52,385 bases of DNA from a virus (taxonomy: Duplodnaviria; Caudoviricetes), in IMG/VR virus record IMGVR_UViG_3300044691_000213, positions 1-52,385 of that record; one strand, written 5' to 3'. The notes under the pieces were generated by a model. It searched no databases. It had not been told where the DNA came from and saw nothing but the letters and a program-made list of their open reading frames with translations. The translations under genes were made by a program, and so were the position numbers. Positions 1 to 45,970 of the stretch are shown here, piece after piece (the stretch's first letter is position 1; every line of letters begins with the position of its first letter).

Positions 1-167
1 CTCAGGTTGGTGCCGCTCAGGTTGGTGCCGCGCAGGTCGGTGCCGCGCAGGTTGGCGCCGCTCAGGTCGGCGTCGCGCAGGTCGGTGAAGCTCAGGTTGG
101 TGCCGCGCAGGTCGGTGCCGCTCAGGTTGGTGCCGCGCAGGTCGGTGCCGCTCAGGTCGGTGCCGCT
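1..167. repeat. 15-bp tandem repeat, consensus C(T/G)CAGGT(T/C)GGTGCCG, encoding pentapeptide repeats
   Basis: About 11 contiguous imperfect 15-mers visible at the window start. Confidence 0.95.
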
Positions 168-284
168 CTTCGCCGCGATCTCAACCGCCGCCCGCATCCG
201 ATACTGCGGAAGCGTATCTTCCGGGATTTCGATTTTCAGAGAGGGCCGTGAGACCCAAGGGCGAAATGTTATGAGCTGCTTCAT
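1..284 (-). CDS. Pentapeptide-repeat protein, N-terminal part (runs off left edge)
   Basis: Manual translation from ATG at 284 (GGAG RBS upstream): [40 protein letters not shown] followed by [15 protein letters not shown] repeats; not in the ORF track because it is truncated. Confidence 0.88.
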
Positions 285-353
285 GGTGGGGTCTCCCATC
301 GTCTGCGCCGGATGCGCTGTTGAGTTGATGTCGCGCTATATGGAAGACGATAC

Positions 354-1156: not shown

Positions 1157-1396
1157 ATGGAAACCAGGGACACAATCGTTGCGCGCTTCGCGGCGACGCT
1201 CGAACAGATCGGATGCTCCGAAAGGTTCTTCGGTGATCGGGCTGTTGGCGATCACAAATTCATGCATCGCCTCCGGCATTCATCCGTGACGCTTTCTCGG
1301 ATCGAGCGCGCCGAGCAATGGCTTTCCGATCGTGTCCGGCTCGGCGATTTCGCTCAAATAAAGCGCGCCGGCAAAATCGCGAGGATTGCGGAATGA
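1157..1396 (+). CDS. Cro-like small HTH protein
   Basis: METRDTIVARF...SERFFGDRAVGDHKFMHRLR...TLSRIERAEQWL resembles alphaproteobacterial small HTH regulators; divergent from the repressor. Confidence 0.7.
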   Translation: METRDTIVARFAATLEQIGCSERFFGDRAVGDHKFMHRLRHSSVTLSRIERAEQWLSDRVRLGDFAQIKRAGKIARIAE

Positions 1397-1491
1397 CCTG
1401 CATTGACCTGTTTCTCGAATTCTGGGCGGCCGCCAATCTCGTCGGTATCGCCCATTTCGGCCTCGTCGTGATGTTCGATCGCGGCTCCTGA
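1393..1491 (+). CDS. Possible 32-aa hydrophobic peptide
   Basis: ATGA overlap with the cro stop; MTCIDLFLEFWAAANLVGIAHFGLVVMFDRGS. Confidence 0.3.
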   Translation: MTCIDLFLEFWAAANLVGIAHFGLVVMFDRGS

Positions 1492-1536
1492 CTTTCTCCC
1501 TGCCCGTGGGTGATTTCCACCCTCCCACGGAACTTG

Positions 1537-1578
1537 CCGGCGGCGCGGCAATGTCGTTGCCGCCGGTCTTTTCTTCTC
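1537..1578 (+). terminator. Putative tR1-like intrinsic terminator
   Basis: CCGGCGGC...GCCGCCGG stem followed by TCTTTTCTT. Confidence 0.45.
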
Positions 1579-1661
1579 TCTCATTTCGCCTCGTTTTACT
1601 ACGCATCACGGAAACCCCAGTTCGTTTCAACCCCTCTAGCATCTGAGAAGGAGCGCGTGAA

Positions 1662-2579
1662 ATGTCGAAAATATCATGCGGAATTCCCTCACGCGCCGCA
1701 GTTGATCTCTCGGATTTCACGCCATCCGGCTTACGTGAATACATGGTTGCAAGTATCGATGCCCTTCTACGGCAGATCCCCGGAAATTCGATCAATGAAA
1801 AAATGCCGACTATCTGCCGAGCCCTTGGTTTTCGAGAGGGTCGCGTCAACGAATATCGTCATCGCAAAATCAATAGGCCCTACGCCGATGAGGTGTGGGC
1901 CGTAATCAATCACGCGGAGCGGGTTGCTGCCGGCAATGTTCGGCGCGCAGAACTGCGTCGCAATAACGAGGATCTCAAAAATGCATTTTCTGGGATGGGT
2001 GATCAGGCTGAATGCCAAGCTGCACTATTACGCATCGCTGGCGATGACGCGATTCAGCGAAATGTCGGCGGCAGTTGCCAAGAGTTGGCAGGAGCGCACG
2101 GCATTCCTCATTCTGCGCTCGGTCGCTTTGCGGGAGGAGTCCTCGATGTCCAAGAAATCGGCATCGACGGCGCAAGACATTCCCATCAGCGCATCATCGA
2201 AGCGATCGGCCAAACGGCGGGCGAGTTCACGCTAGCCGTTTCCGAAGAAATGGAACGGCTCGGCCTCGCCGATCTAACGTGGCTCTACCGCGCAGAAGAG
2301 GCCCTTCCGACGCTCCATGTTGGTAACGGCATCAACATCCTGTCGGCAGAGGACCGCGCTCGGATCGTGGGAAACCCCATTGCCGAACAGCCCTTGCCGC
2401 CCGCACTCCTGTCGCTCGTGTCCGCGCACCTGCACGCATGCATGCACGAGAAGGCGCGGCCCACGGTCCATCGGATCAAGGCGTCCATCGGCGGCCGCAT
2501 CCATGTCTACGATCGTCTCGCCGTGCACTTTCCGAGAAGCCATCTGGTTGCCAGTGCGTGCGCGATGGTGGCGGCATGA
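1662..2579 (+). CDS. Regulator in cII position: N-terminal HTH-like region, coiled linker, C-terminal PAS-like domain
   Basis: AAGGAG RBS; ICRALGFREGRVNEYRHRK is HTH-like; C-terminus HVGNG...VGNPIAEQP...RPTVHRIKASIGGRIHVYDRLAVHF resembles PAS_5-like folds. Confidence 0.5.
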   Translation: MSKISCGIPSRAAVDLSDFTPSGLREYMVASIDALLRQIPGNSINEKMPTICRALGFREGRVNEYRHRKINRPYADEVWAVINHAERVAAGNVRRAELRRNNEDLKNAFSGMGDQAECQAALLRIAGDDAIQRNVGGSCQELAGAHGIPHSALGRFAGGVLDVQEIGIDGARHSHQRIIEAIGQTAGEFTLAVSEEMERLGLADLTWLYRAEEALPTLHVGNGINILSAEDRARIVGNPIAEQPLPPALLSLVSAHLHACMHEKARPTVHRIKASIGGRIHVYDRLAVHFPRSHLVASACAMVAA

Positions 2580-3214
2580 GTGCTCGGGACTGGTTCGCAA
2601 CCCACGGCATCTCGCTCCGACGAACGTCATTCCTCGATCTCGTTCAGGCGCGCAGGGCGGCATCGGAACTCTATGATGCCGCGCCGATCTTCCCGACGTT
2701 CGATCCGACGCGGACGAATATCGAGGGGATTGCGTGGGTCGGAACGCGGGGTGGCGCGCTCATGGCGACCGGCGCCGCAGTCATCCGGGAATGTCCGAAT
2801 GGCCTGAAGCGTGCCGTCGATGATCTGTCGCTGTTCAGTGATCTCGTGACGCCCGGCGAATTCGCCAGCCTGCATGGCGAGACAGCCATGCTCGATCACG
2901 TCACGGACCGCATTGTGGTTGCCGGCGCCGTGTGGCGCGCTCCGGAGGCTGGCGGCGGCTTCCTGGCGGCGTTCTGGCCCATCCTCGTTCGAGCGTCAAT
3001 CGAAGACCTGGGCGCGGACTGGATTGTCGGGATGATCCGCGGCGGCAAGCATGAGGCCATCGGATTTCGAATCGAGGGCTTCCGCCATTTCTGGGAGGGC
3101 GTGAGCTACCGCGATCCGGATTGGGGCGGTGGCTATCAGACCGACGATTTCGTGCTCTGCGCCATGAGCCGCCGGGAGGCACTTGAAAGGGTGCTGGGAC
3201 GCGAGACTGGCTGA
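2576..3214 (+). CDS. Putative GNAT/acyltransferase-fold protein (distantly LuxI/FeeM-like)
   Basis: ATGA-coupled to the upstream gene; FPTFDP...AWVG...ATGAA...GAVWRAPEAGGGFLA (motif-A-like)...ADWIVG...EGF pattern. Confidence 0.45.
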   Translation: MSARDWFATHGISLRRTSFLDLVQARRAASELYDAAPIFPTFDPTRTNIEGIAWVGTRGGALMATGAAVIRECPNGLKRAVDDLSLFSDLVTPGEFASLHGETAMLDHVTDRIVVAGAVWRAPEAGGGFLAAFWPILVRASIEDLGADWIVGMIRGGKHEAIGFRIEGFRHFWEGVSYRDPDWGGGYQTDDFVLCAMSRREALERVLGRETG

Positions 3215-3259
3215 CCGAACCCCAGCGCCGCATGGGTTCTTGCGGCACCCTCCAAACTC

Positions 3260-3307
3260 TCCCCGCGCATGTGTCAGCGCATGCTGCCATGCGCGGGGGC
3301 CTTTTCT
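3260..3307 (+). terminator. Long GC hairpin with T-tail (putative terminator)
   Basis: CCCCGCGCATG...CATGCGCGGGG followed by CTTTTCT. Confidence 0.45.
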
Positions 3308-3322
3308 ACCTCGGAGATTTGC

Positions 3323-3820
3323 GTGATCACCTTCGATCGAGCCCAGGAGATTGTTTCTTACGATCCAAAAACCGGAATTTTCCGGTGGGAGAAGCCTGCG
3401 CATTACTTTGGTTCCAAAGGCGATATCGCCGGATACACGCAAAAGGAGCCAGACAATTATGTAATTCTTGGTTTAGACGGGAGAAACTATAAGGCTCACC
3501 GCGTCGCATGGTTGCTGATGACCGGTACGTGGCCCGATTCATCCTTGGCTGTAGATCACATAGACCGAAATCCTTCGAATAACGCATGGCCCAATCTCCG
3601 ATTAGCGACCCCGAGGCAGAACCGGCTCAATTCGCGGGTGATGTCCAATTCGACCTCTGGGCTGAAGGGTGCCGAAAAGGCGCGCAGAGGAAGATGGGCG
3701 GCGAGGATCACGGTTGATGGCGTCCGGATCAGATTGGGTCAATACGGCACTCCCGAGGAAGCGCACGCGGCCTATCGGGTGGCCGCAGTCAAGTACTTCG
3801 GAGATCGTGCTGGATTCTAG
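3323..3820 (+). CDS. HNH homing endonuclease with C-terminal AP2 domain
   Basis: YKAHRVAW...VDHIDRNPSNNAWPNLRLAT...N; C-terminal RWAARITVDGVRIRLGQYGTPEEAHAAY; GTG start after GGAG. Confidence 0.92.
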   Translation: MITFDRAQEIVSYDPKTGIFRWEKPAHYFGSKGDIAGYTQKEPDNYVILGLDGRNYKAHRVAWLLMTGTWPDSSLAVDHIDRNPSNNAWPNLRLATPRQNRLNSRVMSNSTSGLKGAEKARRGRWAARITVDGVRIRLGQYGTPEEAHAAYRVAAVKYFGDRAGF

Positions 3821-4209: not shown

Positions 4210-4503
4210 ATGGCAACACCCACATCCGGACAGGTCGGCGGCATCGCGGCGGACCAACTGCGCGCCATCATCGATCGGTTGGAGCGGCTTGAGGCCGAGC
4301 GCAAGGCCCTAGCCGACGATATTTCCGACATTTATTCAGAATCCAAGGGCAACGGGTTCTGCAATAAGACAATCAAAAAGATCATCGCCATGCGTCGCAA
4401 GGACAGCGCCACGCTCGATGAAGAACAGATGATGCTCGATGTTTATTGCAGGGCAATCGGCATGGGCCCGGACTTCGAATCCGACGAGCAAGAGGCTGCC
4501 TGA
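4210..4503 (+). CDS. gapR: GapR-like nucleoid-associated protein (DUF2312/UPF0335)
   Basis: IAADQLRAIIDRLERLEAERKALADDISDIYSESKGNGF...IIAMRRKD...EEQMMLDVYCRAIGM is the characteristic DUF2312 pattern. Confidence 0.9.
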   Translation: MATPTSGQVGGIAADQLRAIIDRLERLEAERKALADDISDIYSESKGNGFCNKTIKKIIAMRRKDSATLDEEQMMLDVYCRAIGMGPDFESDEQEAA

Positions 4504-4505
4504 TC

Positions 4506-4709
4506 ATGGCCGTCATGGACGCCGAGATCCGAGACGCGATCTACACCGCATCATCCGTAGGACTGCGGGGAGATGGCTACATGCGATCCGTATTGCCGAG
4601 CGATGCGCAGATCAATCTCCAGACCGCGCGCCTGGTGCGGTTCCTGTCCGAGCTCGACGGCGACCTGACGGTATCGGACTTGCTCGAACAGATGCGGGGC
4701 GATGAGTGA
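4506..4709 (+). CDS. Hypothetical protein
   Basis: Fills the operon between tightly packed neighbours. Confidence 0.6.
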   Translation: MAVMDAEIRDAIYTASSVGLRGDGYMRSVLPSDAQINLQTARLVRFLSELDGDLTVSDLLEQMRGDE

Positions 4710-5065
4710 TGGCTTGCGAGCGCGAGATCCAAGCGGCCGTGGCGCAGTTCCTAAACTTCGCGCTCCCTGCCGACGCCATGTTTCATCACAGTCCGATGGA
4801 AGGCAAGCGCGGCTGGAAAGCCCAAGCAGACCTGAAGTCGAGCGGTGCCCAGGCCGGGTTCCCTGATATCGTCATTCTGTGGCAGGGCAGGGCCTTCACG
4901 ATCGAGTTGAAGGCGCCGAAGAAATACCTCTCACCAGTTCAGAAGGTTGCCCATCGGCGACTTGAAAAGGCCGGCATCCCTATCCGCGTCTGCCATAGCG
5001 TGACCGAAGTCGCGATGACCCTGGCCGACTGGTCCATCCCGTTGTCCGCGCGTGTCGCAGCGTGA
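4709..5065 (+). CDS. VRR-NUC domain nuclease
   Basis: EREIQ...GAQAGFPDIVIL...IELKAPKKYLSPVQK PD-(D/E)xK motif. Confidence 0.88.
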   Translation: MACEREIQAAVAQFLNFALPADAMFHHSPMEGKRGWKAQADLKSSGAQAGFPDIVILWQGRAFTIELKAPKKYLSPVQKVAHRRLEKAGIPIRVCHSVTEVAMTLADWSIPLSARVAA

Positions 5066-5277
5066 GCAACCGTCCCCACACCCAGATCAAGCCGCCCAAG
5101 CGCTCCGCCCGCGCCGATCGGGAATCCGCGTTCGCCCAAGCCGACAACGATCTCCTGGCCGCTGCCCGATGTGAAGGACAGCGCGCCGCCTATTCACATG
5201 CTCTCGATCTCGCCCGGGAGTATCCATCCTCCTGCGCGGCTGAGATCGAAAGCGTCCTCCATGAACTTCCGAGATGA
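5062..5277 (+). CDS. Hypothetical protein
   Basis: GTGA overlap with the VRR-NUC gene. Confidence 0.55.
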   Translation: MSNRPHTQIKPPKRSARADRESAFAQADNDLLAAARCEGQRAAYSHALDLAREYPSSCAAEIESVLHELPR

Positions 5278-5746
5278 TGGGAGCATTTTGATGAACTTCA
5301 AGGAAGCCAAAGACCTCGGCGCCGTCCATTACGATGGGGCGCCATGCAAGGCCTGTGGCAACACCCTCCGATACACGTCGACCTATGGCTGCGTCATGTG
5401 CAAGCGGACAGGAAAGACGACGCTAACCGCCATATCCGCCGAGAAGCAGCAGGAACAAGCGCTCCGCGATGCCGCCGCCAAACTCGGGCAGCAGCGCTAC
5501 CAGGGGCGTGATTGCCTGCATGCCCATGGCGGCCTGCGCTACTCGACAAACGGCGCCTGTGTGGCATGTCGACGAATGGTCGAGGTCGCGGCCAACGAAC
5601 GAAAGAAGGCCGAGCGCGAGGTGCAGAAGCAGCGTCGCAAAGCCCCCCCCATAGCCCGTCCCAATCCGACCCCGGATATGAATGGTTGGGTCTCCTGCAT
5701 CAAGCCTCCCACCCTCGCAATGCTCATGGGGAGGCGTGCACCATGA
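5261..5746 (+). CDS. Cys/His-rich putative zinc-finger protein (two repeats)
   Basis: YDGAPCKACGNTLRYTSTYGCVMC and YQGRDCLHAHGGLRYSTNGACVAC. Confidence 0.65.
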   Translation: MNFRDDGSILMNFKEAKDLGAVHYDGAPCKACGNTLRYTSTYGCVMCKRTGKTTLTAISAEKQQEQALRDAAAKLGQQRYQGRDCLHAHGGLRYSTNGACVACRRMVEVAANERKKAEREVQKQRRKAPPIARPNPTPDMNGWVSCIKPPTLAMLMGRRAP

Positions 5747-6123: not shown

Positions 6124-6371
6124 AAGCCCACACCTTCACCCCAGACGCCGCAGCCCGAGAGGCCGACCTCCTGGCCTGGAATAATCTCGGCAAGGCGTTT
6201 GACGACCGAGCCGCCGCAAAGGCGAAGCGCGCCGCCTCCGTCATCGAATGCCGATGGCTCAAGCATGGCGATTCCGTGCCAGAGGGATGGAGTGTGTCTT
6301 CCAAGGATCCGGCTATTCTGAAGCACCACGGAGCGTATTGCGTGCTGATCGAACGGACGGTGTCGGCATGA
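6120..6371 (+). CDS. Hypothetical protein
   Basis: Overlap-coupled on both sides. Confidence 0.6.
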   Translation: MKAHTFTPDAAAREADLLAWNNLGKAFDDRAAAKAKRAASVIECRWLKHGDSVPEGWSVSSKDPAILKHHGAYCVLIERTVSA

Positions 6372-6967
6372 TCGAGCACGACATCGCTACGGCCATCAGC
6401 GCCGGCCAGAAATGGCAGATCATCCTGGCAGATCCGCCGTGGAGGTTCGCCACCTACTCGACCAAGGGTGAGGGCAAGTCGCCGCAGAAGCACTACGAAT
6501 GCCGGAGCATAGAGGAGATCTGCGCGCTTCAGGTTGCCCAGGTCGCGGACAAGAATTGCGCCATGCTGATCTGGTGCACCTGGCCGACGATCTTCATGGC
6601 CGAGAAGGTCATCAAAGCGTGGGGGTTCAAATATTCCGGCCTAGGATGGGAATGGATAAAGCGCAATCCCAAGACCGGGAAATATTCGTTTGGCGGGGGT
6701 TACGGCACTCGGAAAAACCTGGAGCCGTGCCTGCTTGCCCGACGCGGGTCGCCGAAGCTCTATAGCCGGTCCGAACGAGACTTCATGTTCGCTCCCCGTC
6801 GCGAGCACAGCAGGAAGCCCGACGAGCAATACGCCCGGATCGAACGGATGTACCGCGGCCCGAAGCTGGAGTTGTTCGCGCGTCAGGCCTGGCATGGATG
6901 GGACGCATTTGGTGATCAACTCGGTCTGTTCCAGCCAGAAGCGCGCCTGCCTGGAATTGCAGCATGA
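6368..6967 (+). CDS. MT-A70 family N6-adenine methyltransferase
   Basis: IILADPPW catalytic motif; WGFKY...W.K; EHSRKP...LELFAR...GWDAFG. Confidence 0.92.
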   Translation: MIEHDIATAISAGQKWQIILADPPWRFATYSTKGEGKSPQKHYECRSIEEICALQVAQVADKNCAMLIWCTWPTIFMAEKVIKAWGFKYSGLGWEWIKRNPKTGKYSFGGGYGTRKNLEPCLLARRGSPKLYSRSERDFMFAPRREHSRKPDEQYARIERMYRGPKLELFARQAWHGWDAFGDQLGLFQPEARLPGIAA

Positions 6968-7236
6968 CCACCTTCCCCAAGATCCACGCCGCTGTCGGAG
7001 AAAAGCTCCGCTGCACCAATGGTCATGAGGTGGCCCGTTTCCGCGAGCCCCTGATCGACGGCCAGCCCTTCGACGCCCCGCATCACCTGTCATCCTGGAT
7101 GATCTCCGACACGGACATACTCGTAGGACGATGCTCCTGCGGGTTGCCGTGGAGAGCGGGATATGGGGCATCAACTCAAGTTCGGGTTGGGAGTGAGTGG
7201 GTGCCGGTGGCTGCGGACGAGGGAGCGGGAGAATGA
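6964..7236 (+). CDS. Hypothetical protein (possible zinc ribbon)
   Basis: CTNGH...CSCG; overlap-coupled. Confidence 0.55.
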   Translation: MTTFPKIHAAVGEKLRCTNGHEVARFREPLIDGQPFDAPHHLSSWMISDTDILVGRCSCGLPWRAGYGASTQVRVGSEWVPVAADEGAGE

Positions 7237-8564
7237 GCCCGCTCGTATACGGCAGCGTCTGCAGCGGGATCGAAGCGGCGACCGTTGCATGGCATCCGCT
7301 CGGCTGGCGCCCAGCCTTCTTCAGCGAGATCGAGGCGTTCCCCCGCGCGGTGCTGTCTCACCATTATCCGGCCGTACCGCTTCACGGCGACTTCACCACC
7401 ATTGAGGCGGGCCAGTATGACCCAATTGAGCTTCTTGTCGGCGGAACCCCCTGCCAGAGCTTCAGCATCGCCGGGCTCCGTGGGGGACTGGGAGACGACC
7501 GTGGTAACTTGGCCCTCGAATATCTTCGGCTGGCTGACCGCCTGCGGCCCCAGTGGCTGGTTTGGGAGAACGTGCCCGGCGTCCTGTCATCGAACGGAGG
7601 ACGGGATTTTGGAGCCATTCTCGGGGGCTTGGTCGAACTCGGGTATGGGTTCGCCTACCGAGTGCTTGACGCTCAGCACTTTGGAGTTCCCCAGCGACGG
7701 CGTCGCGTCTTCGTTGTCGGATATCTTGGAGACTGGCGACCTGCCGCAGCGGTACTTTTTGAGCGCCACAGCCTGCAAGGGCATATTGCGCCGCGCCGCC
7801 AAACGCGGGAAAGCGCTACCGAAGGCGCTCAACGATGCTCTTTCGCAATCGGCTCACATGCTGGAGCGGCCGATGGAGATCAAAGCAATAGATCCCATGC
7901 AGCAGGAGGCCCGGTAGGATTAAATATCAGCGATGAACTCGCCTATAGCCTAAGAGCCGGCCGCAATCAATCGGGCGCATTCGGCGGAAATAACACGCGC
8001 GGTCCGATCGATGTGGCATGCGCCTTGAACGCCTCCGGCACCGCCTCCGGCAGAATGGACTTCGAGAGCGAAACCTTCATCGTCGGCACGCTGAATGCCA
8101 ACGGGAAAGCGGCCGGGAGCGCCACACAGCAGGATGCCGAGAGCGGCATGCTCATCACTCACGCGCTGACCGCCAACGGCTTTGACGCTAGCGAGGACGG
8201 GACGGGGCGGGGCACGCCGCTCGTACCGGTCGCGTTCTCCTGCAAGGACCATGGTGCCGACGCGGGCAGCATATCGCCGACCCTACGCTCTATGGGCTTC
8301 TCCGGCAGCCACGCCAATGCTGGTGGACAGGTCGCGGTTCAGAATCACGCTGGCGTCCGCCGCCTGACGCCACGCGAGTGCGAACGGCTCCAGGGCTTCC
8401 CCGACGATTACACAGCCGTCCCGTATCGCGGAAAGATCGCCGCAGACGGACCCCGGTATAAGGCCCTTGGAAATTCCATGGCGGTTCCCTGCATGTCCTG
8501 GATCGGCCAGAGAATTGAACTCGTGCGCGCCATCCTAGCTCAGCATAAGGCGCGAGCAGCATGA
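7233..8564 (+). CDS. C5-cytosine DNA methyltransferase
   Basis: Motifs SVCSGIEA, GGTPCQSFS, WENVPG, PQRRRRVF, RRLTPRECERLQGFP, YKALGNS. Confidence 0.96.
   Translation: MSPLVYGSVCSGIEAATVAWHPLGWRPAFFSEIEAFPRAVLSHHYPAVPLHGDFTTIEAGQYDPIELLVGGTPCQSFSIAGLRGGLGDDRGNLALEYLRLADRLRPQWLVWENVPGVLSSNGGRDFGAILGGLVELGYGFAYRVLDAQHFGVPQRRRRVFVVGYLGDWRPAAAVLFERHSLQGHIAPRRQTRESATEGAQRCSFAIGSHAGAADGDQSNRSHAAGGPVGLNISDELAYSLRAGRNQSGAFGGNNTRGPIDVACALNASGTASGRMDFESETFIVGTLNANGKAAGSATQQDAESGMLITHALTANGFDASEDGTGRGTPLVPVAFSCKDHGADAGSISPTLRSMGFSGSHANAGGQVAVQNHAGVRRLTPRECERLQGFPDDYTAVPYRGKIAADGPRYKALGNSMAVPCMSWIGQRIELVRAILAQHKARAA
7417..7917 (+). CDS. Nested alternative-frame ORF resembling the beta polypeptide of M.EcoHK31I
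   Basis: WSNSGM...ECLTLSTLEFPS...SLSDILETGDLPQRYFLS...ILRRAAKRGKALP; GAGG RBS before ATG 7417; recalled similarity, not searched. Confidence 0.6.
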   Translation: MTQLSFLSAEPPARASASPGSVGDWETTVVTWPSNIFGWLTACGPSGWFGRTCPASCHRTEDGILEPFSGAWSNSGMGSPTECLTLSTLEFPSDGVASSLSDILETGDLPQRYFLSATACKGILRRAAKRGKALPKALNDALSQSAHMLERPMEIKAIDPMQQEAR

Positions 8565-9103: not shown

Positions 9104-9331
9104 TTGAACCCCTCCCATATCATCACCCCCTCCCCAGAGCAGGAAGCCGCATCCGTGGCATTCGAGCATGCCGCCTGGTGGCGCCTACGCGGGCTTACGG
9201 CTGCCGAGGCATGCGACGCCCTCGGGATAGCCCACGACTGCCATTGGGACCGCGTTGAGCAAGCCCTGCGCAGGCGGTGGCGTGAGGCGGTCCAGACCAA
9301 GGCGCAGAGCGCACGTAGGAGCGCCGCGTGA
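9104..9331 (+). CDS. Hypothetical protein
   Basis: Coupled by GTGA overlap to the replication gene. Confidence 0.45.
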   Translation: MNPSHIITPSPEQEAASVAFEHAAWWRLRGLTAAEACDALGIAHDCHWDRVEQALRRRWREAVQTKAQSARRSAA

Positions 9332-10215
9332 GCAAGCCAAAGTACATCTCGATTTCGATTGCCGAGTTCCTGGCCGATATCGCAGGCGAAGTCGATCTCG
9401 CCGAGTTGGGCGCCTATTGGCTCGTCTGCCTGCTCATTTACAGCCGCGCGGACGCGATTAAAGACGATCCGGAATGGATCTCTGGGAAGCTCCGGAAGGT
9501 CAATCCGAGGACCGTCCGGGCCGCTATCGACGGCCTGGTTCGCATGGGGAAAGTGACGCGAATTGACGGCGAACTGATGGTGAACCGGTGTCGAACCGAG
9601 ATCGAACGCACCACGAACCGCATTCGAACCGCGTCTGAAAACGGATCTAATGGCGGCAGACCTTCAAAGAAAACAACGACTTCCGAAACCGAAGCCTTAA
9701 TTTACGAAAAAACTATAGTGAAGGTGAATGAAGGTAAGGGTGAAGAAGAAGAACCAGTAGCTAACGCTATTGTTGTGCGATCCGCACCAAAATCTTCCTC
9801 GATAGACGAATCAGAATTCCAGGAATTCTACAACGTGTTTCCGCTCCACAAGGCGAGAGGGGGCGCCCTGAAGGCCTACCTGTCCGCTCGCAAGAAAGGC
9901 GCCAGCCATGAAATCCTTGTCCGAGGCGCTGCCAGCTATGCCGACCATTGCCGACGAACCGGAACCACGAAGCAATTCACCGCGCACCCCGCTACTTGGC
10001 TCAACGAACAGCGCTGGCTTGACGATCTCTCCGACGATCAACCCGCTTGCGCTCGTCCAGGCAGACCGACCGGAGGATACCGACAAGGCGGTCGAAGCGA
10101 TGTTGAAATCATTGCCGACCTTGTCGCTGAGGCCGAGCGGCAGGAGCAAGGTGGGGGATTACGGCTGGGAGACGACGACGACGGGTTTTTCGGTGGGCTC
10201 CGCGTTGTCTCGTGA
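9328..10215 (+). CDS. Phage replication initiation protein (DUF1376/YdaU-like N-terminus)
   Basis: ISIAEFLAD...ELGAYWLVCLLIY; ASENGSNGGRP; C-terminal FQEFYNVFP...HPATWLNEQRWLD. Confidence 0.82.
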   Translation: MSKPKYISISIAEFLADIAGEVDLAELGAYWLVCLLIYSRADAIKDDPEWISGKLRKVNPRTVRAAIDGLVRMGKVTRIDGELMVNRCRTEIERTTNRIRTASENGSNGGRPSKKTTTSETEALIYEKTIVKVNEGKGEEEEPVANAIVVRSAPKSSSIDESEFQEFYNVFPLHKARGGALKAYLSARKKGASHEILVRGAASYADHCRRTGTTKQFTAHPATWLNEQRWLDDLSDDQPACARPGRPTGGYRQGGRSDVEIIADLVAEAERQEQGGGLRLGDDDDGFFGGLRVVS

Positions 10216-44908: not shown

Positions 44909-45970
44909 TCATGACGCCTTACCGCGAGGGGTCTTTTTCGATGTGGACCGTTCCAGTTTCCGTATCGCAAGCTTCGTCATCTCGGGCATCCGCGGCAGGT
45001 ACGTCCGCAAGATCGTCTCGGCATTCTTGAGCGTATGGCCCGTCACGGAGGCGATTTCCGGAACCGTGCAACCGGCTTGGGCGAGCTTGACGACGGCAGT
45101 GCGGCGGAAGTCGCGGATCTGCATATCCTTGATCCCAGCCCTCCCGCAGACCGTATCGTACCAGTCCCGGAATCGCGTGGTTGAGATCGGCTGCCCAATG
45201 CGGTCGGTGACGATGTGCGTGCCCTTGGCAATAGCCTTGGCGGCCCTCAACTGCGCCGCCAGATCGGTATGGCACCAGATCCGCAGGAACGCCCCGGTCT
45301 TCTGCTGCCGAACCTCGATGCCATCGGTGTTCCAGCGCGCCCAGGTCATCGCCAGCACGTCGCCCGGGCGTTGGGCCGTATAGAGCAGCAGGGCAATGCC
45401 CAGGCGCAGCGCAGCGCCTTCCTCGTGGGCATCGGCCGCAGCGAGCAGCGCCGCAATCTGATCATCACCCCAGACCTGTGACCGAACCGGCGATGCCTCA
45501 AGCCGAAGGTCGCGCGTCGGGTTCTCGGTGATCAGGCGCAGATGCCGCGCCAGGTCGAGCAGATTGTTCAGCACGCCAATCGCGAGCTCGCGTGTTGCTG
45601 GCCGGTCGTTCAGGCCCTTGGCGAACTCATGCACCATCGGAAAGTCGATCTCGGCCGCTTGCAGGTCACCCCAATCGGTTTCGTATCGGTTCAGCCAGAT
45701 GCCGTAGGCTTTTTGCGTTGCCGCGGCCTTGGCCTTGAAGCCGTCGCTGTCGCGATACTCGCGCACGAGCCATCCGATCGAGTGGATATCGAAACCCGTC
45801 CCGCCCTTCTTCGCCTGATCCGCGCGCCGGTTCAGCCGCTCTGCCTCGCGGAACCGCGCGACCTCATTGTCTGACAACCGGACGAGCTTATTGCCCGGCC
45901 GCTGCCAGTACCAGATGATGCGGCCCCCGGCCTTAACCCGCTTTGTGACGTACCGCATTCTTACCAGCAT
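44909..45970 (-). CDS. int: Tyrosine recombinase/integrase
   Basis: TAQRPGD (R), QQKTG (K), RDFRRT (HxxR variant), TGHT, ILRTY (Y). Confidence 0.94.
   Translation of the reverse strand: MLVRMRYVTKRVKAGGRIIWYWQRPGNKLVRLSDNEVARFREAERLNRRADQAKKGGTGFDIHSIGWLVREYRDSDGFKAKAAATQKAYGIWLNRYETDWGDLQAAEIDFPMVHEFAKGLNDRPATRELAIGVLNNLLDLARHLRLITENPTRDLRLEASPVRSQVWGDDQIAALLAAADAHEEGAALRLGIALLLYTAQRPGDVLAMTWARWNTDGIEVRQQKTGAFLRIWCHTDLAAQLRAAKAIAKGTHIVTDRIGQPISTTRFRDWYDTVCGRAGIKDMQIRDFRRTAVVKLAQAGCTVPEIASVTGHTLKNAETILRTYLPRMPEMTKLAIRKLERSTSKKTPRGKAS

Follow-up and report, generated by a model that had tools for sequence, protein, structure and literature searches.

A prophage gene pair encoding a candidate PAS_5-like regulator and a predicted GNAT-fold enzyme recurs on bacterial chromosomes and plasmids

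The virus record IMGVR_UViG_3300044691_000213 (Duplodnaviria; Caudoviricetes), analysed over its full 52,385 bp and referred to here as the window, is a temperate siphovirus-like prophage because structural, replication and integrase genes are all present; its estimated completeness is 69%. Directly after a cro-like gene in its early region lie two coupled genes, A and B. Gene A encodes a protein (P0001) with a probable PAS_5-like domain at its C-terminus, and gene B a protein (P0002) predicted to have the GNAT fold of acyl-CoA N-acyltransferases. The pair can be described as a sensor-regulator and enzyme module of known folds, drawn from two unannotated families. With slightly less than even confidence, A and B are read as a self-contained, ligand-linked regulator-enzyme cassette tied to acyl transfer. 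The evidence comes from the anatomy of the cassette, from its recurrence in a second arrangement on chromosomes and plasmids, and from fold and profile comparisons of the two proteins.

Organization of the A-B cassette

1536-1582, plus strand: terminator-like hairpin with a U-rich tail between the cro-like gene and A (stem 1536-1567)
1662-2579, plus strand: gene A (P0001), 305 residues, with a helical N-terminal part, a variable linker and a probable PAS_5-like C-terminal domain (about residues 170-305)
2576-3214, plus strand: gene B (P0002), 212 residues, acyltransferase-like with a predicted GNAT fold, of an unannotated family
3260-3307, plus strand: terminator-like hairpin closing the pair (stem 3260-3299, followed by CCUUUUCU)

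Gene A is preceded by GAAGGAG, and the start codon of B overlaps the stop codon of A in the ATGA at 2576-2579. Both are real genes, with homologues in public protein collections at 49-90% identity for B and 66-71% for A, the latter range covering eight close homologues. The stem at 1536-1567 folds at -27.2 kcal/mol (z -3.84), a stability equalled by one of 200 shuffled sequences, and the fold of 3215-3322, around the second hairpin, has a z of -2.76, with two of 200 shuffles as good. A simple terminator scan picks up the first hairpin and misses the second; its total for the window, four against a shuffle mean of 3.8, is not higher than in shuffles. Upstream of A, a promoter scan gave no sigma-70-like promoter and a repeat search no convincing operator-like repeat. 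The cassette is located where early rightward transcription must cross it.

This anatomy had been set out in a preliminary description made from the sequence, which placed two ATGA-coupled genes of 305 and 212 codons after cro with a hairpin on each side, and the coordinates and folds agree with it. The same description saw in this the position of cII in lambdoid phages. Gene order and the hairpin after the cro-like gene bear that out, and the placement recurs in a second prophage.

Recurrence of the pair in other genomes

The second prophage is a locus (L002) in a Rhodospirillales metagenome-assembled genome (MAG). It repeats the order repressor-like gene, cro-like gene, A homologue (344 residues), ATGA-coupled B and GapR, and shares two further early genes with the window. 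The related-locus search of genome contigs gave one locus, and those of viral contigs and metagenome contigs gave nothing; P0002 likewise had no tblastn match among 50,697 phage records. Among 244 genomes of the MAG's order (hereafter the order), the A profile gave four strong matches in three genomes, each of them immediately 5' of one of the four best B-family matches and in the same orientation. An A-type gene was found in the 401-genome class sample in the starting genome only, and a wider A profile gathers 26 clusters among 5.8 billion proteins. The form found in phages, co-directional and fused to a helix-turn-helix (HTH) domain, is rare.

Genomic context is available for five loci, and at three of them the pair is all that is shared with the window; about 12 kb of open reading frames (ORFs) at those three, read without a family search, include no obvious phage genes. 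The A-B pair is therefore a portable cassette and not an element devoted to the role of cII.

On chromosomes the usual arrangement is a different one. A broader B profile matches 175 of the 244 genomes of the order, with one to seven copies each, and the neighbour of chromosomal B is a convergent ORF of about 290-310 residues whose 3' end overlaps that of B. In this partner, an N-terminal domain that is conserved and of unknown type precedes a PAS_5-like C-terminal domain, which ends in R-Y-[DE]-R-L-L-L-P-W. The partner family is present in 170 of the 244 genomes. The pair thus occurs in about 70% of the order's genomes, yet neither family is named in Pfam, NCBIfam, PHROGs or PADLOC. The most conserved copy, with bit scores of 300-420, is found once per genome across most genomes of the order.

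Adjacency was tallied over the 150 B and 150 partner matches listed, with 107 and 164 further matches outside the list. A partner lies within 1.5 kb on the same contig for 107 of the 150 B matches listed, and all 107 of these pairs are convergent. The tallies include four genomes marked unpublished (G035, G036, G213 and G237); one of the 107 pairs comes from G035, and the conclusions are independent of these genomes. With these pairs, and with A upstream of the four best B genes, the two families do co-occur beyond this phage, as the preliminary description had anticipated. Outside the order the partner is sporadic: in the class sample of 401 it was found in 18 genomes, three of them from the order. 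A convergent B-family ORF stands at 7 of 11 partner loci in this sample (the starting genome's own locus excluded; one locus within the order).

Plasmids carry the family as well. B-family genes were found in 29 plasmid records from Sinorhizobium, Bradyrhizobium, Azospirillum, Rhizobium, Roseibium and Mesorhizobium; annotation listed under the matches reads 'hypothetical protein', except in four Azospirillum records, which have none there. One Azospirillum plasmid has the pair in its overlapping, convergent form in the RefSeq annotation.

A maximum-likelihood tree of 50 B-family proteins has two sides, separated by a split with support of 98/93. One side holds all B genes with a known A-type neighbour, together with their close relatives and eight proteins from metagenomes whose context is unknown; the A neighbour was verified in 5 of its 12 'A-linked' rows (the window, L002, L006, L007 and L072), and the other seven are labelled by kinship, two of them being on contigs equal in length to contigs with A homologues. 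The other side holds 30 chromosomal rows, most, though not all, with a convergent partner.

Single loci depart from these arrangements in several ways. On pNGR234a (L073, 227072-229202), an ATP-grasp gene of biotin-carboxylase-like type follows B in place of the PAS_5-like partner, and this B-family gene is surrounded by insertion sequence elements and integrases. On a Roseibium plasmid (L074), B and the convergent partner are separated by an NTF2-family gene, with a divergent HTH gene upstream. Directly upstream of one chromosomal PAS_5-like partner (L070, contig G116:C19), an Xre-type HTH gene occupies 1975-2481 on the minus strand; together, this gene and the partner could be a split version of the HTH-fused architecture of A.

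The predicted fold of protein B

P0002 has no match in Pfam, PHROG, NCBIfam, PADLOC or PDB sequences. Its close homologues form 7 clusters, itself included, among 5.8 billion proteins, and 11 representatives at E <= 0.001 were found among 1.84 billion. Against PDB sequences, P0001, P0002 and the profiles A2, A3 and A6 gave nothing meaningful (best E 0.16).

Structure comparison, in turn, points in a single direction. The AlphaFold2 (AF2) model of B, built from a seven-sequence alignment, has a mean predicted local distance difference test (pLDDT) of 81.6 and a predicted template-modelling score of 0.82. Foldseek compared it with the PDB and gave 220 matches at E <= 0.001, of which all those listed are GNATs. 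On VIA re-comparison, 434 of 999 chains reached Z >= 8; values rise to 10.9 over residues 5-205, the best match being SpeG (Z 10.9, root-mean-square deviation (rmsd) 3.4, 148 residues aligned). A search independent of Foldseek, against 48,161 chains, returned a top 50 drawn entirely from the GNAT superfamily. Matches within one Z unit were treated as tied, so that no GNAT subfamily stands out for B. The viral structures in BFVD yielded generic viral GNATs only; at rank 29 (E 2.8e-3) is a Roseobacter-phage protein named AHL synthetase, no better than the other matches. Relatives of B match Acetyltransf_1 below threshold only (best E 9.1e-4, 19.9 bits against a cut-off of 20.7). The GNAT fold that the preliminary description had called by eye for the 212-residue protein is thus well supported: the AF2 model predicts this mixed alpha/beta fold (beta1-alpha1-(alpha2)-beta2-beta3-beta4-alpha3-beta5-alpha4-beta6-beta7), and all fold searches agree with it.

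GNAT motif A forms a pyrophosphate-binding loop, Q/R-x-x-G-x-G/A, between beta4 and alpha3. The beta4-alpha3 segment is also the most conserved part of the B family, with the consensus G-A-x-W-V-R-P-D-x-R-G-x-G-L in 50 members, in which G117, W120 and P123 are invariant-like and a Y-G after beta5 is conserved as well. These two segments we take to be GNAT motifs A and B. In the branch that includes P0002, the loop reads W-R-A-P-E-A-G-G/K-G-F-L, with its glycines kept and its arginine lost. The W.APE.GG.FLA that was earlier likened to motif A is accordingly at most a putative motif A: the wider family has W-V-R-P-D-x-R-G-x-G-L, of which P0002 keeps the glycines and lacks the arginine.

The preliminary description had also likened B to N-acyl synthases of the LuxI and FeeM types, but no specific link to LuxI emerged and the link to FeeM is weak. 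P0002 has no match to PF00765 (Autoind_synth), a family that matches in 10 of 81 sampled genomes of the order and never at B-family loci. Alignment of the B family with a six-sequence LuxI alignment by hhalign gave a probability of 0.4-2.1%, with a control at 0.2%, and no LuxI-type synthase appears among the matches listed in the PDB fold searches with B. The FeeM family (PF21926) has no match to P0002 and matches only 2 of 20 scanned relatives of B, below threshold (E 0.0035 and 0.17). The FeeM structure 2g0b aligns with B at Z 10.1 (rmsd 3.6, 156 aligned, 15% identity) and 9.7, which ties it with SpeG, NatA, glyphosate acetyltransferase and others. B and FeeM share a GNAT-like fold and a similar length, a resemblance of the kind seen with any GNAT.

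The domains of protein A

The conserved core of the A family is its C-terminal 155 residues. By hhalign, residues 150-305 of A (11 sequences) align with the chromosomal partner family at 96.5% probability (E 8.4e-10, 130 columns). The partner family aligns in turn with a PAS_5 alignment of 27 domains from three genomes at 93.2% (E 2.9e-7, positions 3-127 of 136), while controls against a GNAT alignment gave 0.1-0.3%. Through this intermediate family, the C-terminal half of A is supported, indirectly, as a divergent PAS_5-like domain, which the preliminary description had suspected. Leads from the ESM Atlas agree: a model of P0001 (pLDDT 0.58) falls with PAS_5 and PAS_4 clusters at row TM values of 0.68-0.76, under the tool's bar and taken as a lead only. 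The Pfam PAS_5 model itself has no match at E <= 10 in eight close members of the A family. PF07310 is strongly expanded in three genomes (G001, G087 and G089), with 12-19 six-frame matches each, besides the sub-threshold PAS_5-like partners.

An HTH at the N-terminus, as first proposed for A, is found in its sisters and goes unrecognized in A itself. Clear Xre-type HTH domains occur in three sister proteins that adjoin B homologues: two match HTH_3 (E 2.4e-11 and 3e-9) and a third matches HTH_26 (E 2.2e-4). The 26 A clusters include one that its source names a 'transcriptional regulator with XRE-family HTH domain' and two with PF13560. Residues 47-73 of P0001 look HTH-like by eye only, and an ESM Atlas feature match of P0001 to an HTH cro/C1 cluster (0.86, 172 shared features) is a lead only.

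A proposed ligand-linked regulator and enzyme

Several features of the pair favour a regulator acting with an enzyme. The A and B families are not chance neighbours, because more than 100 loci have them side by side, in one of two arrangements, and their trees divide in step. The N-terminal domain of the chromosomal partner is swapped for an HTH in the sisters of A, which points to the PAS_5-like domain as the constant sensor and to the N-terminal domain as the output. The chromosomal genes are convergent and not co-transcribed, and thus fit a regulator and an enzyme better than an obligate complex; complex prediction for A residues 150-305 with B scored 0.00 against a mark of 0.32, which gives no verdict either way.

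On this basis, A may be a one-component transcription factor, with a small molecule or B acting on its PAS_5-like domain. B would transfer an acyl group from a donor to a small molecule or a protein, and A would sense or control that activity. Within this explanation, it is more probable that A senses B's substrate or product than that B acylates A. Transcription of the cassette would be early, either starting at its own promoter or continuing past the hairpin that follows the cro-like gene, and the phage would in this way couple early gene expression, possibly including the choice between lysis and lysogeny, to acylation chemistry. Hairpins on both sides, and loci that lie outside prophages, would also suit a portable cassette of the moron type.

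A number of observations weigh against this explanation. Neither A nor B is named by any model of Pfam, PHROG, NCBIfam or PADLOC. Modelling of A by AF2 gave a poor result (pLDDT 40.2): of the five-stranded antiparallel sheet flanked by helices that marks PAS domains, the model contains three C-terminal strands and the helices before them, the first two strands are not seen, and the fold is not directly visible. Directly compared, the C-terminus of A aligns with PAS_5 weakly (7.6%, E 0.0046, colinear over 109 columns), and a six-frame search with Pfam PAS_5 (PF07310) misses the A genes of three genomes. The N-terminus of P0001 has no Pfam HTH match, and hhalign pairs it with its HTH-bearing sisters at 0.6%. 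The chromosomal partners have no DNA-binding domain recognizable by a Pfam or NCBIfam match, and for this reason they are at most putative regulators. Cofactor binding by P0002 is likewise putative only, because the motif A arginine is gone and the loop has a pLDDT below 50. Among the 150 B matches listed, 43 have no listed partner, four of these being A-linked. Finally, position is the sole tie between the cassette and the lysis-lysogeny decision.

Alternative explanations

The strongest alternative, although an unlikely one, is a protein acylation switch or a pair resembling a toxin-antitoxin system, in which B would acylate a protein (A, a phage regulator or a host protein) or an aminoacyl-tRNA, and A would bind and restrain B and autoregulate the operon. 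As in TacT-TacA, a gene of DNA-binding type lies upstream of a GNAT gene and overlaps it, here through the ATGA, and tRNA-acetylating TacT toxins are among the structural matches of B (Z 8.6), although they rank under many ordinary acetyltransferases. A pair that is found in prophages and on plasmids, as well as next to transposases and integrases, and that has several paralogous copies per genome, would also suit such a system. However, A, at 305 residues, is far larger than the antitoxins and unrelated to them by Pfam, with no match to antitoxin families (RHH/DUF1778), and no PADLOC model matches either protein. Unlike toxin-antitoxin operons, the common chromosomal form is convergent (107 of 107 pairs among the matches listed) and hence not co-transcribed, and the single highly conserved copy per genome looks like a vertically inherited cellular function.

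A signal synthase and its receptor appear distinctly unlikely. B would make a diffusible N-acyl compound and A would bind it, giving a quorum-sensing-like bias between lysis and lysogeny, or a cellular response in the chromosomal form. N-acyl synthases do use GNAT-like folds, FeeM is among the tied top structures (Z 10.1 and 9.7), and the FeeM family has its sub-threshold matches in 2 of 20 relatives. As with LuxI and LuxR, a gene for an enzyme of acyltransferase fold adjoins one for a protein with a ligand-binding alpha/beta sensor and an HTH, since the sisters of A fuse a PAS-type sensor domain to an HTH. The enzyme and sensor genes are strict neighbours, convergent with overlapping 3' ends, an arrangement that several luxI/luxR pairs share, and the pair is present in up to seven paralogous copies per genome. 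The likeness has limits, however. The domain order of A is the reverse, with the HTH-type end first and the sensor last; its sensor is PAS_5-like and not Autoind_bind; the chromosomal partner has an unknown N-terminal domain in place of the HTH; and B has no sequence kinship to LuxI. The FeeM match equals those to polyamine or N-terminal acetyltransferases, no export gene accompanies the pair, and three of the five context loci share no other gene with the phage. A bolder form of the idea is a shade harder to credit still: the pair would be an unrecognised alphaproteobacterial synthase/receptor system, chemically unlike LuxI/LuxR and common in an order where canonical LuxI turned up in just 10 of 81 sampled genomes, and phages would have taken the Xre-HTH version so as to make and read the signal after the cro-like gene and set the balance of lysis and lysogeny.

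Improbable, and the weakest of these explanations, is that A is a cII-type lysogeny activator and B an unrelated passenger, either a moron or an accessory enzyme that modifies DNA or a metabolite: the place after a cro-like gene and a terminator-like hairpin matches that of lambda cII, hairpins flank both sides as in morons, DNA-modifying genes (an MT-A70 methylase, a C5 methylase and an HNH endonuclease) abound nearby, and phage Mu Mom is described as a DNA modifier with a GNAT fold (PMC7261163), but A has no cII family match in Pfam or PHROG, the pair also stands at loci with no other gene in common with the phage, and the families are joined in two arrangements with trees that split together.

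Relation to known systems and significance

The regulator-enzyme cassette proposed here has several partial counterparts. The PAS_5 family is represented by MopJ of Caulobacter, described as a single-domain PAS_5 protein of 165 residues tied to the kinase DivJ and to CtrA accumulation (PMC4432633). It is the only characterised PAS_5 (pfam07310) protein found in the literature searched, and it reveals little on ligands. A and the chromosomal partners have a sensor domain related to that family; unlike MopJ, they are about 300 residues long with an additional N-terminal domain, adjoin a GNAT gene and score under the Pfam PAS_5 threshold.

Ligand-controlled phage regulators include VqmA-phage, which joins PAS and HTH domains, and the arbitrium receptor AimR. 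A resembles them in being a candidate transcription factor with a sensor domain, encoded by a phage close to its immunity region, a likeness for which homology is not claimed, and differs from them in coming with an enzyme gene of its own and in belonging to a pair that also exists outside phages. In GNATs fused to cyclic-nucleotide-binding or ACT domains, which are sensor-regulated protein acetyltransferases, the sensor is part of the enzyme. Both designs tie a small-molecule sensor to a GNAT, whereas A is a separate protein with its own output domain. In the literature on PAS_5/PF07310, on DUF1457/MopJ and on GNATs with lysis-lysogeny, the A-B pair is not described in the main texts, with supplements outside the search.

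The phage copy is a compact and tractable version of this widespread pair, with two genes, an HTH-type output in the sisters and a clear place in the immunity region. It offers an entry point to the ligands of PAS_5-like domains and to the acylation targets of this GNAT branch. If the link to a ligand is true, the early regulation of phages would gain a small-molecule input of a new kind; otherwise the pair still stands as widespread and well defined and merits family definition.

The phage setting

594-1097, minus strand: cI-like repressor candidate, 167 residues (HTH_26 E 0.0057, below cut-off; PHROG 4583 'transcriptional repressor' E 0.0033)
1157-1396, plus strand: cro-like ORF, 79 residues, named from its position (PHROG 7669, unknown function, E 0.0072)
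3269-3820, plus strand: HNH endonuclease with an AP2 domain (HNH_3 E 7.7e-17; PHROG 99 E 4.9e-59)
4210-4503, plus strand: GapR-like DNA-binding protein, the next early gene (GapR_DNA-bd E 1.1e-26)
9328-10215: replication initiator
44909-45970, minus strand: tyrosine integrase

Genes for a large terminase, a portal, a major head protein and a tape measure protein are also encoded in the window. The candidate label of the cI-like ORF is based mainly on its position, divergent from the cro-like gene, and the cro-like ORF has no Pfam match. Just 5' of the first hairpin, a hydrophobic ORF of 32 residues (MTCIDLFLEFWAAANLVGIAHFGLVVMFDRGS; 1393-1491, plus strand), whose ATG overlaps the stop codon of the cro-like gene in an ATGA, may encode a small membrane peptide. 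A role for A as the replication initiator was ruled out, as the window encodes its own at 9328-10215.

Downstream of the pair, the HNH/AP2 gene lies between B and the GapR-like gene and is missing from this place in the related prophage L002, as expected of a mobile homing-type insertion. Its listed ATG falls within the second hairpin, and for that reason an in-frame GTG at 3323, behind a GGAG, is by eye the likelier start. The GapR-like gene is common to the related prophage, with 62% identity (tblastn to L078); in L002 the GapR-like version (4441-5430) has 329 residues and a long C-terminal extension. A VRR-NUC nuclease gene, recognized by Pfam, also lies downstream of the A-B pair. Farther along the early region are tandem DNA methyltransferases, one of MT-A70 type (6248-6967) and one of C5-cytosine type (7197-8564), the latter additionally matching a PHROG annotated as primase.

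At the left end of the record, beside the cI-like gene, a pentapeptide-repeat fragment (ORF 3-299, minus strand) runs off the sequence, and DNA with a 15-nt period at 1-170 mirrors its repeats. This fragment could be a host gene or a phage moron.

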